Part shown: positions 1,695-43,904 of the stretch, in pieces
How positions within the stretch are numbered: position 1 is the stretch's first letter
Layout: the number at the start of each line of letters is the position of its first letter
Notes under the pieces: generated by a model
The model's input: the letters and a program-made list of their open reading frames with translations, nothing else
What the model was told of the DNA's origin: nothing
The model's database searches: none
Translations under genes and position numbers: made by a program
NCBI GenBank assembly: GCA_002433895.1
Contig: DJJA01000003.1
Location: forward strand, 575,745-639,744
From: Candidatus Gottesmanbacteria bacterium UBA6580
Lineage (GTDB): Bacteria > Patescibacteriota > Microgenomatia > UBA10105 > UBA927
Direction of reading: 5' to 3'
DNA length: 64,000 bases

Positions 1695-1836
1695 AAGGCG
1701 ATGATCCCGGGTGGCACCGGATGAGCCAAACATAAATGAAGCAGCTCCGCCGTTTTGGCGGGGAAGTAGGGTGGAACCGTCCTGAGGATATGTCAAAGGA
1801 CCCCTATCACAATTGTATTGTGGTGGGGGATTTTTT
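1695..1836 (+). promoter_or_regulatory. Glycine-specific T-box riboswitch leader (transcription attenuator) upstream of glyQS, with an ultrashort Stem I
   Basis: T-box sequence AGGGTGGAACCG at 1768-1779, including the 7 nt bulge UGGAACC (UGGA can pair tRNA-Gly UCCA). Antiterminator helices are GTAGGG/CCCTAT and GTCC/GGAC. The terminator is a 13 bp stem at 1801-1829 followed by T6 at 1831-1836, and it overlaps the 3' strand of the antiterminator. Stem III is CCGCC-GTTTT-GGCGG at 1747-1761. Hairpin CCGG-GTGGCA-CCGG at 1707-1720 carries the glycine codon GGC plus A in its loop, flanked by GATGA/ATGAG K-turn-like motifs. Confidence 0.65.
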
Positions 1837-1951: not shown

Positions 1952-3328
1952 ATGGTTACCTTAGAACAAATAGCGAGTTTGTGTAAGCGGCGTGGGTTTG
2001 TCTATCCCACGAGCGATATTTATGGCGGCCTTACCAGCTCGTATGATTATGGCCCCATGGGAGCTGAGTTGCTCCGGAACATCAGAGCGCTATGGTGGAA
2101 AACATTTATTCATGAGCGCATTGATATGGTTGGCTTGGATTCACAAATATTGCTCCACCCGGAAACATGGGTCGCGAGCGGACACGTGGGCTCCTTCAAT
2201 GACCCGCTGGTAGAAGACAGTGTCACCAATAAACGGTACCGTGCCGACCACCTTATCGAAGCCTGGCTTACCGGTCACCCTGACCCGGCTATCACCGTAG
2301 AAGACATGACCATCGAACAAATGGCGGATTTTATTGAGACGCATGGGATCGCAAGTCCCGAGGGTAACCCGTTGTCGAAGCCGAAAAAGTTTAATTTGCT
2401 CTTTGAAACGAAGCTCGGTGTGGTGGAGGGCGAAAAGTCACTGCTCTATATGCGTGGGGAGACGGCTCAGGGGATATTTACTAATTTCCGGAATATTGTA
2501 GATTCCAGCAGAGTGCAGTTGCCGTTTGGAGTAGGTCAGATCGGTAAATCATTCCGTAATGAAATTACGACCGGGCAGTTTATTTTCCGGACGATTGAGT
2601 TAGAACAAGCGGAAATAGAGTACTTTTTTGACCCCAACGAGACCGACTGGCAAACGCTGCTTGATTCGTGGAAAGATGCGATGTGGAGCTTTGTGACGAC
2701 AAAAATGGGAGTATCTCCGGATCACCTGCAGTGGCGGAGGCATACCGACAAAGAGCGGAGCCACTATAGTAAAGATACTTTTGACCTGGATTATCAGTTT
2801 CCTTTTGGGTGGAAAGAATTATGGGGCATAGCGTACCGCACGGATTACGATCTGCGGGCGCAAGCAGAACATTCAGGCGTGGATTTGAGCTTTACCAATC
2901 CGCAAACCGGCAAAAAGATAATCCCGCACGTGATAGAGCCCGCGGTAGGAATTAACCGGTTATTCCTCATGGTGCTTGCGGACGCCTATACGCAGGAAGA
3001 AAAGCGGATCGTACTCAAACTGTCGCCCGCGTTATCACCGATCAAGGTGGCTGTATTTCCGTTGGTTGCCAATAAGCCAGACCTAGTCACGAAAGCACGA
3101 GCTGTCTATGAAGAGCTGAAAAAAACCCTCGTGGTTTCTTGGGACGACCGCGGCAATATCGGAAAGCGGTATTTGGCACAAGATGAGGTGGGCACCCCGT
3201 GGTGCGTCACCGTTGATTATGCTACCCTAGAAGATGGAACAGTAACTGTCCGTGACCGGGACACAACCCAACAGGAGCGGATAAAGGTTGCTGACCTTAC
3301 TGCCTACTTTCAGGCAAAATTACTATAA
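1952..3328 (+). CDS. glyQS: Glycine--tRNA ligase (class II, alpha2 type)
   Basis: 'CKRRGFVYPTSDIYGGL...YDYGPMGAEL' N-terminus and overall length match dimeric GlyRS. GAGGAGG SD lies 8 nt upstream. Confidence 0.85.
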   Translation: MVTLEQIASLCKRRGFVYPTSDIYGGLTSSYDYGPMGAELLRNIRALWWKTFIHERIDMVGLDSQILLHPETWVASGHVGSFNDPLVEDSVTNKRYRADHLIEAWLTGHPDPAITVEDMTIEQMADFIETHGIASPEGNPLSKPKKFNLLFETKLGVVEGEKSLLYMRGETAQGIFTNFRNIVDSSRVQLPFGVGQIGKSFRNEITTGQFIFRTIELEQAEIEYFFDPNETDWQTLLDSWKDAMWSFVTTKMGVSPDHLQWRRHTDKERSHYSKDTFDLDYQFPFGWKELWGIAYRTDYDLRAQAEHSGVDLSFTNPQTGKKIIPHVIEPAVGINRLFLMVLADAYTQEEKRIVLKLSPALSPIKVAVFPLVANKPDLVTKARAVYEELKKTLVVSWDDRGNIGKRYLAQDEVGTPWCVTVDYATLEDGTVTVRDRDTTQQERIKVADLTAYFQAKLL

Positions 3329-40717: not shown

Positions 40718-41002
40718 TTGTTTCGTGGCGTTGATTTTGTTATACTTGCCCATGGAAATGCGTTTGATCCCGGCTATCACCGGGAAAGGCAGGGAAAAGA
40801 AACCCGCATTGGCGGGATGTAGACTTCCCCGGGTACGCCCGTAATAGCAAAAAGAAGGGTAAATAGAAAGAGCGTAACGAGTAAATAGAAGTATTTTCTA
40901 TTTTCTGTTAACTTTTGACTATTTACTAAATTAAGGTGGTACCACGATCGGCACGAAGCTGACTCGTCCTTTATAGTAATATAGATAAGGACGGGTTTTT
41001 TT
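40718..41002 (+). promoter_or_regulatory. Isoleucine-specific T-box riboswitch leader (transcription attenuator) upstream of ileS, with an ultrashort Stem I
   Basis: Promoter TTGTTT-N17-TATACT at 40718-40746. Hairpin CCCGG-CTATCA-CCGGG at 40769-40784 carries the Ile codon ATC (40776-40778) plus A in its loop. T-box sequence AAATTAAGGTGGTACCACG at 40928-40946 includes the bulge UGGUACC (UGGU pairs tRNA-Ile ACCA). Antiterminator helices are AAGG/CCTT and ACGA/TCGT. The terminator is CGTCCTT...AAGGACG at 40965-40993 followed by T7 at 40996-41002, and it overlaps the antiterminator 3' strand. Confidence 0.65.
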
Positions 41003-41066
41003 GTGGCAGTTGACGGATTTGCCGTGTTACTGCCACATATGGCGAGAACTGAAAAGAAGTACCATT

Positions 41067-43904
41067 ATGGCAAAATTACAACAGGATAATTTTCAAGAAA
41101 AGCTTGATGTTCCCAAAAGTGAGCACGAAGTCCTGGCATTTTGGGATGAGACGAATGCGTTTGAGCGCTCAGTAAGCGAACGGCCTGCTGATAAGCAGTA
41201 CGTTTTTTATGATGGCCCGCCGTTTGCCACCGGACTGCCGCACTATGGCCATATTTTGGCTTCTACCATAAAAGATGTTATTCCCCGGTATTGGACCATG
41301 AAAGGCTATCGGGTAAGCCGCGTATGGGGGTGGGATTGTCACGGGATACCAATAGAAAACATGGTGGAAAAAGAGCTGGGACTCGTCGGCGGGAAAAAAG
41401 GCATCGAAGCCATGGGGATAGGAAAGTTTAACGACGCGTGCCGGGCGGCGATATTCCGTTTTGATAAAGAATGGGAAAAAGTGATCCACCGGATCGGACG
41501 ATGGGTTGATTTTAAGCACTCGTATAAGACCATGGATGCGACGTATATGGAGTCCGTCTGGTGGGCGTTTAAACAGCTGTACGACAAGGGACTTATATAC
41601 GAAGGGCGCAAGGTAATTTTGTACTGCCCGAGGTGCGCGACCCCACTTTCCAACTTTGAGATTGCCATGGATAACAGCTACAAGGACATGAATGGTCCGA
41701 GTACGATTTATAAATACAAAGTAACAAACGAGCCGGACACCTTTTTACTCGCCTGGTCGACGACGCCCTGGAATAAGCTCGCTACCCCGGCGCTTGCGGT
41801 AAACCCGACCATGAAATACGTGAAGGTTAAACAAAAAGGCGAGCAGTATATCCTCGCCAAAAGCACGGTTGGCATGCTCGACAACGAGCCGTACGAGGTG
41901 GTCGGGGAGTATATCGGTACTGATTTGGAAAAACTCACATTTGAGCTTCATTATGATTTTTATCCCCGGCGTGACGGAGAGCGCGCGGGTGTCGTGGTTG
42001 CAGACGAGTATGTCGCTGACGCCGAAGGCACAGGCATCGTGACACTGGCCGTATACGGGGAAGATGACTACCGGGTGATGACGAAGCATCATATCCAGCC
42101 CGTGGAGCATGTGGATAGCGAAGGAAAGCTCAAGCCGGAAGTCACTCCCTGGGCAGGGATGTTTATGCTCAAAGTAAATCCACTCGTCAATGAAGACCTG
42201 CAAAAACGTGGATTAGTGTACCGCAATGAGGACCGGCTCCACAGTGTCCCCGTGTGTTACCGCTGTGAAACACGGCTATATCACGCGCCGGTGCCGGCGT
42301 GGTTTATCAATGTTGCCAAGATTAAAAATGATCTGATTACGCAAAATGAACACATCAATTGGTATCCGGATCACCTGAAGCATGGACGTTTCGGGAAGGG
42401 ACTTGAGACTGCTCCTGATTGGAATATTTCCCGTTCCCGTTATTGGGGGACGCCAATGCCAATCTGGGTAGACACAAAAACCGCGAAAATGCGCATTGTC
42501 GGATCACTCGAAGAACTCCGTACGTGGGCAGTAGATCAGGATAGCGCTCGCAAACTTACCGATATCCATCGTGAGTTTTTGGATGACCTGGAAGTATGGG
42601 TAGATGATGAAAAAACGGTGAAAGGGAAGCGGATCCCGGAAGTATTTGATTGTTGGGTAGAGAGCGGGAGCATGCCGTATGCCTCCATTCACTATCCGTT
42701 TGAGCATAAAAAAGAATTTGAGCAGTCGCACCCGGCGCAGTTTATTGCTGAATACATAGCGCAAACACGCGCGTGGTTTTATACCCTGCACGTGATGTCC
42801 GTAGGATTATTTGGTACCCACACATTTGAAAACGCGGTGACTACCGGCACAATTCTTGCAGAAGATGGCGCCAAAATGAGCAAGAGCAAGAAAAATTATC
42901 CGGATCCCACGCTGCTTTTTGAAAAATACGGTGTTGACGCGCTGCGGTTTTACCTCATGGGATCGGTCGTGATGAAGGCGGAAAATGTGAACTTTTCTGA
43001 AGAAGGCGTGAAAGAGATATACCAAAAAGTGGTATCGACTACGTGGAACGTATTTAGCTTTTATAAATTATATGTAAAAGGTGCGCCACCCGCCACTGCT
43101 CCGAAGCCAACGCATGTCATGGATAAATGGATATTGAGCAAGCTCAATACGCTTATCATCGATGTGACCGGGGCAATGGACGGCTACGATACGACGCATA
43201 CCTGCCGGTTGCTGGTTTCGTTTATCACCGACCTCTCTACGTGGTACCTCCGGAGAAGCCGTGACCGGATACAAGCCGATGAGACAGGACAACAGGTGTT
43301 TGGTTGGGTGCTATCCTGCCTTATCCGTCTTATGGCACCGATCACTCCGTTTATTACTGAGCGTATGTATCAAAATATGGAAACGACGGGCAACTCAATC
43401 CATCTCGCCGAGTGGCCGGTTGCCGATGAAAGCCTCATCGATACCACGCTGGATACCCATATGGCATTTGTGAGAACTGTCGCGGAGCTTGGGAATGCGA
43501 AACGTAAAGAGCTGGGTATACCGGTGCGCCAGCCGCTTAATAAAATAACGGTTGCTACCGCAAATAACGCGCCGTCTGACGAATGGCTATCGGTTGCTCT
43601 CGAGGAACTGAACATAAAAACTTGTGTGGTGGTCAAAACAGACAAAGAAACATCAGTAGAACTCGATACTACGATCACCCCGGAGCTTCAGGCAGAGGGT
43701 GACGCGCGTAAGCTCATCCGTGAAATCCAAGTGCTCCGGAAAGAAAAGGGTTGTAAGATAGATGAATACGTGTCGCTCGTGTTACCGGAAAGTTACAAAT
43801 CACTTGAAACTTTGCTGCCTCAGATAAAACAAGCTACACTGGCAAGTACAATCACATGGGGCGATCAACTTTCCATCGATACACACAAGACGGGCACCAA
43901 GTAG
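41067..43904 (+). CDS. ileS: Isoleucine--tRNA ligase
   Basis: 'PPFATGLPHYGHIL' HIGH motif, 'KMSKSKKN' KMSKS motif, and 945 aa length. Confidence 0.9.
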   Translation: MAKLQQDNFQEKLDVPKSEHEVLAFWDETNAFERSVSERPADKQYVFYDGPPFATGLPHYGHILASTIKDVIPRYWTMKGYRVSRVWGWDCHGIPIENMVEKELGLVGGKKGIEAMGIGKFNDACRAAIFRFDKEWEKVIHRIGRWVDFKHSYKTMDATYMESVWWAFKQLYDKGLIYEGRKVILYCPRCATPLSNFEIAMDNSYKDMNGPSTIYKYKVTNEPDTFLLAWSTTPWNKLATPALAVNPTMKYVKVKQKGEQYILAKSTVGMLDNEPYEVVGEYIGTDLEKLTFELHYDFYPRRDGERAGVVVADEYVADAEGTGIVTLAVYGEDDYRVMTKHHIQPVEHVDSEGKLKPEVTPWAGMFMLKVNPLVNEDLQKRGLVYRNEDRLHSVPVCYRCETRLYHAPVPAWFINVAKIKNDLITQNEHINWYPDHLKHGRFGKGLETAPDWNISRSRYWGTPMPIWVDTKTAKMRIVGSLEELRTWAVDQDSARKLTDIHREFLDDLEVWVDDEKTVKGKRIPEVFDCWVESGSMPYASIHYPFEHKKEFEQSHPAQFIAEYIAQTRAWFYTLHVMSVGLFGTHTFENAVTTGTILAEDGAKMSKSKKNYPDPTLLFEKYGVDALRFYLMGSVVMKAENVNFSEEGVKEIYQKVVSTTWNVFSFYKLYVKGAPPATAPKPTHVMDKWILSKLNTLIIDVTGAMDGYDTTHTCRLLVSFITDLSTWYLRRSRDRIQADETGQQVFGWVLSCLIRLMAPITPFITERMYQNMETTGNSIHLAEWPVADESLIDTTLDTHMAFVRTVAELGNAKRKELGIPVRQPLNKITVATANNAPSDEWLSVALEELNIKTCVVVKTDKETSVELDTTITPELQAEGDARKLIREIQVLRKEKGCKIDEYVSLVLPESYKSLETLLPQIKQATLASTITWGDQLSIDTHKTGTK

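Follow-up and report, generated by a model that had tools for sequence, protein, structure and literature searches.

Can a leader RNA that has neither an elbow-binding platform nor a Stem II still sense tRNA and control the gene behind it? The question is raised by a 64,000-nucleotide (nt) stretch of DNA from Candidatus Gottesmanbacteria bacterium UBA6580 (contig DJJA01000003.1, positions 575,745 to 639,744), hereafter the window, to which all coordinates without a locus prefix refer. Between the stop codon of recO at 1658 and the start of glyQS at 1952, the plus strand at 1693–1836 carries a promoter-proximal hairpin with a kink-turn (K-turn), a Stem III, a T-box sequence and a terminator that overlaps an antiterminator, all 5′ of glyQS. 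Judged from the sequence comparisons described below, this leader is very probably a T-box riboswitch specific for glycine, which regulates glyQS by attenuating its transcription and is built on a scaffold reduced in two respects. The open reading frame (ORF) at 1952–3328 (+) encodes a glycine–tRNA ligase (GlyRS; NCBIfam NF003211, 584 bits against a cut-off of 312), a 458-residue enzyme of the dimeric type with the Pfam domains tRNA-synt_2b and HGTP_anticodon, and the ORF upstream of the leader encodes RecO (TIGR00613). The leader consists of the following parts.

1697–1727, + strand: ultrashort Stem I, 31 nt, with a K-turn base, a 4-bp helix and an apical loop
1713–1715, + strand: specifier GGC (Gly), followed by the conserved 3′ purine A1716 and preceded by the likewise conserved U1712
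1728–1744, + strand: single-stranded linker, 17 nt, whose 3′ end (AAGCAG) is purine-rich before Stem III
1745–1763, + strand: Stem III, 7 bp, CUCCGCC with GGCGGGG, loop GUUUU
1764–1782, + strand: T-box sequence AAGUAGGGUGGAACCGUCC, 5′ strand of the antiterminator, aligned to the Rfam consensus
1766–1807, + strand: antiterminator, with helix A1 (1766–1771/1802–1807), bulge UGGAACC (1772–1778) and helix A2 (1779–1783/1797–1801)
1801–1836, + strand: intrinsic terminator, a 13-bp stem (1801–1829) with a 3-nt loop, then AUUUUUU (1830–1836)

A first-pass annotation of this DNA had described the T-box sequence with its UGGA bulge, the antiterminator and the 13-bp terminator with U-tract, as well as a 4-bp hairpin whose loop GUGGCA presents GGC plus A between K-turn-like flanks; all of these elements are present where it had placed them. 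Read from the 5′ end, Stem I runs GGC, GAU-GA, U-C-CCGG, the loop GUGGCA, CCGG-A-U, GA and GCC. The C-stem pairs GGC (1697–1699) with GCC (1725–1727), followed by the bulge GAU (1700–1702) and the tandem G·A positions 1703–1704 with 1723–1724, so that the flanks read GAUGA (1700–1704) and UGA (1722–1724). Above them, CCGG (1707–1710) pairs with CCGG (1717–1720) and closes the loop at 1711–1716. By its sequence pattern, the base of Stem I thus qualifies as a K-turn (GA motif). The 3′ side of the hairpin (codon, A, a stem strand of 4–6 nt, GA, C-stem) follows the same order as that of a canonical Stem I, and its 5′ half, GCGAUGA, corresponds to the start of the Rfam T-box consensus; the hairpin is therefore a canonical Stem I minus everything above the Specifier Loop. 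Downstream, a AANNNGGGUGGNACCGCG-like T-box sequence with a 7-nt UGGNACC bulge is found, which is invariant across the sets of 25 and 44 leaders introduced below. Its core AGGGTGGAACCG at 1768–1779 is the sole exact match in the 64 kb, where three matches occur if at most one mismatch is allowed, against 0.82 expected by chance. In the antiterminator, A1 pairs GUAGGG with CCCUAU and A2 pairs GUCC(U) with (A)GGAC. Since positions 1801–1807 are common to the terminator and the antiterminator, the two structures are mutually exclusive.

How would such a leader work? Transcription would start a few bases 5′ of Stem I, and the GUGGCA hexaloop would offer GGC and its 3′ purine to the GCC anticodon of tRNA-Gly. 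The discriminator would be built from the T-box sequence together with Stem III, which follows Stem I after a 17-nt linker too short to accommodate a Stem II or a IIA/B pseudoknot. With uncharged tRNA, the 3′ UCCA end would pair with UGGA in the 7-nt bulge and stabilise the antiterminator, so that the polymerase reads into glyQS; with charged tRNA or none, the more stable 13-bp terminator would form and transcription would stop at the U-tract. Since both the elbow platform and Stem II/IIA/B are missing, two contacts, one with the anticodon and one with the 3′ end, would in essence have to hold the tRNA. We infer tRNA binding, charge sensing and readthrough from this architecture.

Folding calculations agree with such a switch. 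The terminator (−19.5 kcal/mol) is more stable than the antiterminator (−11.7 kcal/mol), and Stem III folds at −13.1 kcal/mol. For a nascent RNA ending at 1808–1812, the minimum-energy fold contains Stem I, Stem III and the antiterminator with its bulge and nothing else, and the terminator prevails once the transcript extends to 1830. These energetics follow the standard T-box logic, in which the weaker antiterminator needs a ligand to persist.

Is the design conserved? We compared 80 genomic loci encoding the closest GlyRS relatives (63–82% identity; L numbers below refer to these loci). Those from Patescibacteria belong to metagenome-assembled genomes (MAGs) of Woesebacteria, Roizmanbacteria, Pacebacteria/Paceibacterota and the 'Patescibacteria group', and those from Chloroflexi to Anaerolineae, Ardenticatenaceae, Promineifilaceae, Caldilineaceae, Bellilinea and Leptofilum. 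Many of the third-party MAGs (L001, L003, L004, L008, L009, L012 and others) bear the title 'uncultured Gammaproteobacteria' or 'Pseudomonadales'; their GlyRS, their recO–glyQS synteny and their leaders are of the Patescibacteria or Chloroflexi type, and the titles look unreliable. Several genes of the window are collinear with those of L006 (Patescibacteria group bacterium, 82–90% amino acid identity) and of L002 (Candidatus Woesebacteria, 75–80%), and also with those of L004 and L005, which bears out the earlier suggestion that the window derives from a lineage of the candidate phyla radiation (CPR) type. An identical GlyRS is found on contigs from sludge and bioreactor metagenomes.

The sequence AGGGUGGAACC lies 5′ of glyQS in about half of the loci, nearly always together with a short hairpin that carries UGGCA in its loop. 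A covariance model seeded with 25 leaders (R1) gives matches of 32–100 bits in the window and in 43 of the 80 loci, each directly 5′ of glyQS. The same leader was thus recovered from related genomes, as the first-pass annotation had proposed to check, and the 44 leaders bear out its central claim of a T-box with an ultrashort Stem I, an apical GGC and a terminator 5′ of glyQS. In the 44-sequence alignment, which was fitted to the model and thereby favours the structure, standard pairs fill 91.9% of the cells, compared with 39–45% when the partners are slid by 1–3 columns, and changes on both sides occur at 21 of the 25 pairs. The number of cells changed on both sides (288) far exceeds that in shuffles (85 ± 8); for four of five measures none of 500 shuffles reached the observed value, and for the count of pairs changed on both sides 10 of 500 did. 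All five helices covary, namely the K-turn C-stem, the Stem I helix, Stem III, A1 and A2. Across the 44 leaders, the Stem I helices are 86–90% paired with compensatory changes at all eight pairs, Stem III shows such changes at all six modelled pairs, and the two antiterminator helices are 98% and 92.5% paired. Consistently, RNAalifold recovered the same Stem I and antiterminator helices from a plain MAFFT alignment, with compensatory changes at 16 of 20 pairs. A second model (R2) was seeded with 16 Chloroflexi-labelled leaders only and contained neither the window nor any CPR sequence; its best match in the window is 1693–1809 (31.8 bits, E ~2e-6 over 238 kb), and it also matches 24 other non-Chloroflexi leaders at E ~1e-3 or better.

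The GA..GA positions of the K-turn are invariant in 25 leaders, and the position beside the tandem G·A is usually a non-Watson–Crick pair, as is typical of K-turns. Another set of leaders (type B; L007, L015, L027, L030 and others) is without the K-turn flanks and retains the GGC loop and the T-box. A terminator with a U-tract follows nearly all homologous leaders, and the elbow platform is absent from all 44. The leader design also occurs in at least 18 genomes labelled as Chloroflexi (Anaerolineae, Ardenticatenaceae, Promineifilaceae, Caldilineaceae); it is not peculiar to the CPR and is common to Patescibacteria and Chloroflexi. In one of the leaders (L028:2679–2767), Stem III is apparently missing too, with 24 nt between Stem I and the T-box; this leader, about 87 nt long as far as the antiterminator, is a still smaller version of the design.

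What does Stem I read? The apical loop could be extracted automatically in 42 of the 44 leaders and contains GGC in every one of the 42; the two others carry CUUUGGCAA and CCUUGGCAA loops further 5′. The loops measure 5–9 nt, the commonest being GUGGCA-like hexaloops among the relatives of the window and CUUUGGCAA in Chloroflexi. The codon is followed by A in 41 of the 42 leaders and preceded by U in 40, and the second base after it is A in 30. The bulge of the T-box reads UGGA in 42 of the 44 leaders and UGGG in two. The loop core UGGCA is complementary to tRNA positions 33–37, and UUGGCAA is exactly the reverse complement of UUGCCAA, the anticodon loop of Escherichia coli tRNA-Gly(GCC), whose discriminator U73 (from E. 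coli, not from the host tRNA) fits the bulge UGGA.

A comparison with a second synthetase is offered by the window itself, in which a further T-box leader came to light.

40760–41003, + strand: second T-box leader, 5′ of the IleRS coding sequence (41067–43904), found through a weak R1 match
40930–40947, + strand: T-box sequence AAUUAAGGUGGUACCACG of the ileS leader
about 40962–41003, + strand: terminator and U-run of the ileS leader

The downstream gene encodes IleRS (TIGR00392, 776 bits). The ileS leader matches the Rfam T-box model (RF00230) with 32 bits (gathering score 93), the interior of Stem I being deleted. Its Stem I reads GAUCCCGG[CUAUCA]CCGGGAAAGGC at 40766–40790, with a 3′ strand that begins CCGGG after the CUAUCA loop, and its glyQS counterpart reads GAUCCCGG[GUGGCA]CCGGAUGAGCC. 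The specifier AUC (40776–40778) is followed by A. The same AUC plus A is present 5′ of IleRS in all seven leaders of this kind, including six metagenome relatives with an AUCA loop and a UGGU bulge; the base preceding the codon is not conserved among them. A second hairpin, CCCG[CAUUGG]CGGG at 40804–40817, was considered as the ileS specifier loop and rejected, as it corresponds to Stem II in the alignment with the relatives. The AGUAGA and CGGGUACGCCCG segments of the window's ileS leader are aligned by Rfam to Stem II and IIA-B. Like the actinobacterial class, the ileS leaders keep Stem II (with an AGUAGA S-turn) and a pseudoknot element, CGGGUAAGCCCG, and they end in terminators; the one in the window also has an unusually long Stem III insertion.

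Codon and bulge shift together between the two families, from GGC plus A with UGGA at glyQS to AUC plus A with UGGU at ileS. The discriminator of tRNA-Ile is A73, which fits the bulge UGGU. At the level of sequence, codon and bulge base thus track the identity of the synthetase. The covariation of codon and bulge that had been suggested as a check was therefore seen across families; it was compared in this way because GGC and, nearly, UGGA do not vary within the glycine set. The Stem I modules at 1700–1724 and 40763–40787 are near-identical except for the loop (GAUCCCGG-NN-codon-A-CCGG), as though a single module had been copied and its codon exchanged. The ileS leader combines an actinobacterial-type decoding module with a transcription terminator, here in a CPR genome.

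How does the glyQS leader relate to known systems? It shares much with the canonical glycine T-boxes (glyQS/glyQ of Bacillus subtilis, Geobacillus kaustophilus and Oceanobacillus iheyensis; RF00230): GGC followed by A, a basal K-turn, a flexible single-stranded linker without Stem II/IIA/B, Stem III with flanking purines, the UGGAACC bulge, the antiterminator/terminator switch and GlyRS as the product of the target gene. The canonical leaders have the S-turn/GAA side of an internal Specifier Loop, as well as an AG bulge and a distal loop which together form the elbow platform; all of these are missing here. In contrast to them, the specifier lies in an apical loop of 5–9 nt, the codon is preceded by a conserved U, and Stem I to terminator spans only about 140 nt. 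An apical-loop specifier is an accepted layout for short Stem Is, and glycine T-boxes naturally lack Stem II, the GGC:GCC duplex being strong (PMC7583486). The ileS leaders of Actinobacteria (Mycobacterium smegmatis, Mycobacterium tuberculosis) likewise present the specifier in an apical loop above a K-turn and have no elbow platform (Sherwood et al. 2015, cited in PMC7583486). They differ in being isoleucine-specific and translational, acting by sequestration of the Shine–Dalgarno (SD) sequence, and in needing a Stem II S-turn and a IIA/B pseudoknot to hold the codon–anticodon duplex, neither of which the glyQS leader has. The likeness to this class drawn in the first-pass annotation therefore holds for the short Stem I with its apical loop and fails for Stem II and the IIA/B pseudoknot, whose lack is the more remarkable trait of the glyQS leader. 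The window's ileS leader (40760–41003) is closer to the actinobacterial class than the glyQS leader is, yet carries a terminator. Five defining features place the glyQS leader in the T-box mechanism class, namely the T-box sequence with its bulge, the switch between terminator and antiterminator, a gene-matched specifier, a predicted K-turn and Stem III; from the canonical family it departs in the elbow platform and the Rfam score, and from the actinobacterial short class in Stem II/IIA-B and SD sequestration.

Several observations weigh against the assignment of the glyQS leader as a working T-box. One is its low Rfam score (17 bits against 93). Across the whole window, RF00230 has no match at its gathering score, the sole Rfam match at that level being a tRNA-Val, and a 401-nt slice gave no T-box match at E ≤ 10. 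A 155-nt slice gave a 5′-truncated match of 17.2 bits (gathering score 93, E = 0.038), which covers model positions 104–219, that is, the end of the purine-rich linker, Stem III and the antiterminator, with the linker AAGC-G aligned to the conserved 'AAGuG' positions preceding Stem III. To positions 1–103 nothing was aligned, and the score stays below the threshold because these roughly 100 Stem I positions are absent. A significant Rfam match, which the first-pass annotation had named as a check, was thus not obtained; this does not refute its proposal, because that proposal itself has Stem I almost wholly missing. Nor does a canonical T-box reach the gathering score in any of 40 related loci. 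Weak Rfam matches to NsiR1, mir-9465 and C/D-box sR38 were dismissed, as they reflect the terminator hairpin or the GAUGA..UGA K-turn-like boxes.

To these objections are added a full-length minimum-energy fold in which the 5′ strand of Stem I pairs with the freed T-box sequence, and, above the K-turn of the window's Stem I, U·U and C·A mismatches or else a bulged C. The Stem I segment CGGGUGGCACCG (1708–1719) is identical at 10 of 12 positions to AGGGUGGAACCG of the T-box (1768–1779), a similarity seen only in the window, L001 and L002. Long-range pairing of Stem I with the T-box was accordingly rejected as a conserved feature on account of this restriction, and the similarity of CGGGUGGCACCG and AGGGUGGAACCG is probably coincidental. 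No tRNA-Gly gene was found in the window or in 130 fetched loci, and the anticodon loop and discriminator were therefore assumed from general bacterial tRNA-Gly. At 37 of the 80 closest glyQS loci there is no leader, only a promoter and a short untranslated region, so that this control is dispensable. In the published view, moreover, transcriptional T-boxes need an elbow-binding platform for rapid capture of the tRNA elbow, and truncated Stem Is without Stem II bind tRNA barely detectably (PMC7583486). A leader without elbow and Stem II contacts might be too weak or too slow for co-transcriptional action.

Part of this weakness could be made good by the loop itself. In a variant that leaves the T-box reading in place and refines its mechanism, an extended loop–loop kiss of 5–7 nt (UGGCA in the CPR type, UUGGCAA in the Chloroflexi type) would replace the elbow and Stem II contacts. 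The conservation of U(−1), A(+1) and A(+2) in 40, 41 and 30 of the 42 loops and the exact complementarity of UUGGCAA to the E. coli anticodon loop speak for such a kiss, as does the 5′-GAA-3′, rather than U, that is conserved before the codon in canonical glycine T-boxes. Rough duplex energies, which ignore loop geometry, amount to −6.8 to −7.9 kcal/mol, whereas the codon by itself gives −4.3. tRNA-Ile carries t6A37; if this base cannot pair, the lack of a conserved −1 base in ileS leaders of the same design also fits. Against this stand the reading of the complementarity from E. coli tRNA-Gly, the host tRNA-Gly being absent from the window and the fetched loci, and the relatedness of the Chloroflexi that supply the 18 UUUGGCAA loops, which are not independent. 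Furthermore, the U-turn and base stacking normally occupy U33 and position 37, and in solved T-box complexes the conserved 3′ purine stacks rather than pairs (PMC7583486). We regard the extended kiss as conceivable but somewhat doubtful. A T-box that works only with a protein partner, such as an L7Ae/YbxF-type K-turn binder or an RNA chaperone, seems unlikely: the invariance of the K-turn GA..GA in 25 leaders and the very low published affinities of a truncated Stem I alone would suit it, but none of the genes next to the leader (recO, DUF4012, histidine phosphatase and mraZ) is a candidate, and the type B leaders keep the GGC loop and the T-box without the K-turn flanks.

Two further readings would abandon tRNA-dependent attenuation, and both are very improbable. 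The drastically shortened Stem I, the low Rfam score and the complete loss of the leader in many relatives could suggest a decayed T-box remnant, in which the hairpin has ceased to read tRNA and the terminator attenuates transcription either constitutively or under some other control. Decay is hard to reconcile with an apical-loop GGC that stays invariant through 44 diverged leaders of two phyla in which the stem covaries, with the intact UGGNACC bulge and antiterminator/terminator overlap, or with an ileS counterpart that shows AUC together with UGGU. The other reading, a translational T-box that sequesters the SD sequence as in actinobacterial ileS, could invoke the fact that the short Stem I T-boxes characterised so far are translational, and the terminator 3′ strand GGGAGGGA of L005, which is separated from the ATG by 7 nt and might also serve as a sequestered SD. 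In the window, however, the competing helix is an intrinsic terminator, a 13-bp GC-rich stem directly followed by U6; the SD sequence at 1937–1943 lies 100 nt 3′ of this helix and outside it, so that no SD sequestration was found as the expression platform, and U-tracts follow almost all homologues. At L005:2120–2200, one helix could both terminate transcription and mask the ribosome-binding site.

The regions flanking the switch hold three more features.

1655–1684, + strand: sigma-70-like promoter, −35 TTGACA (1655–1660), 18-nt spacer, −10 TATCCT (1679–1684)
1887–1926, + strand: spacer hairpin AUGGUUUCG...CGAAACCAU, inner GCGC-GAA-GCGC, within the 115 nt that separate the terminator from the start codon
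1937–3328, + strand: SD sequence GAGGAGG (1937–1943) and glyQS coding sequence (1952–3328)

The promoter matches 10 of 12 consensus positions in a consensus scan, and its −35 element overlaps the recO stop codon. TTGACA followed by TAGACT occurs at the same site in L001, L002, L004, L005 and L006. Transcription would accordingly start at about 1691–1693, just 5′ of Stem I. The equivalent of the spacer hairpin in L001 stays paired through a compensatory CG to GC swap, and this hairpin may or may not be part of the switch. L004 and L005 have no spacer, the ATG following the terminator directly. In the window, a three-codon mini-ORF (AUG AGG UAA, 1837–1845, +) abuts the U-tract of the terminator; it occupies the site of the true glyQS start codon in L004 and L005 and may be a relic of a start site moved by insertion of the spacer.

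Has such a leader been described before? The T-box database TBDB contains some class-I matches with a truncated Stem I, which are not described further, and glycine T-boxes of Chloroflexi are mentioned only in general terms (Herpetosiphon). The searchable literature yielded no report of T-boxes with Patescibacteria, the candidate phyla radiation or Parcubacteria, where a prior mention is possible, and nothing that brings Anaerolinea together with T-boxes, Stem I, Stem II and transcriptional control. We likewise found no description there of a transcriptional glycine T-box without both the elbow platform and Stem II, although an earlier one is possible. As a broader proposal, which we put forward tentatively and hold to be possible rather than probable, these leaders would form a natural 'two-point' class of about 90–140 nt that binds tRNA-Gly without elbow or Stem II contacts. 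A kiss of 5–7 bp between the apical loop (UGGCA/UUGGCAA) and the whole anticodon loop would compensate for their loss and be fast enough to act co-transcriptionally. The class would be the smallest known tRNA-sensing architecture, and Chloroflexi and Patescibacteria would share it by descent or through transfer of glyQS with its leader.

These leaders place tRNA-sensing riboswitches, of glyQS and ileS, in Patescibacteria (CPR), and link them to versions in Chloroflexi, which bears on how the supply of aminoacyl-tRNA is controlled in these reduced genomes. Annotation based on Rfam misses the whole class, with no match at the gathering score in the 40 related loci and the window. For structural work and the engineering of tRNA sensors, the leader would provide a very small natural scaffold. 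A widespread and conserved class without both modules would show that a T-box can manage with contacts to the anticodon and the 3′ end, at any rate where the codon is the GC-rich one for glycine.

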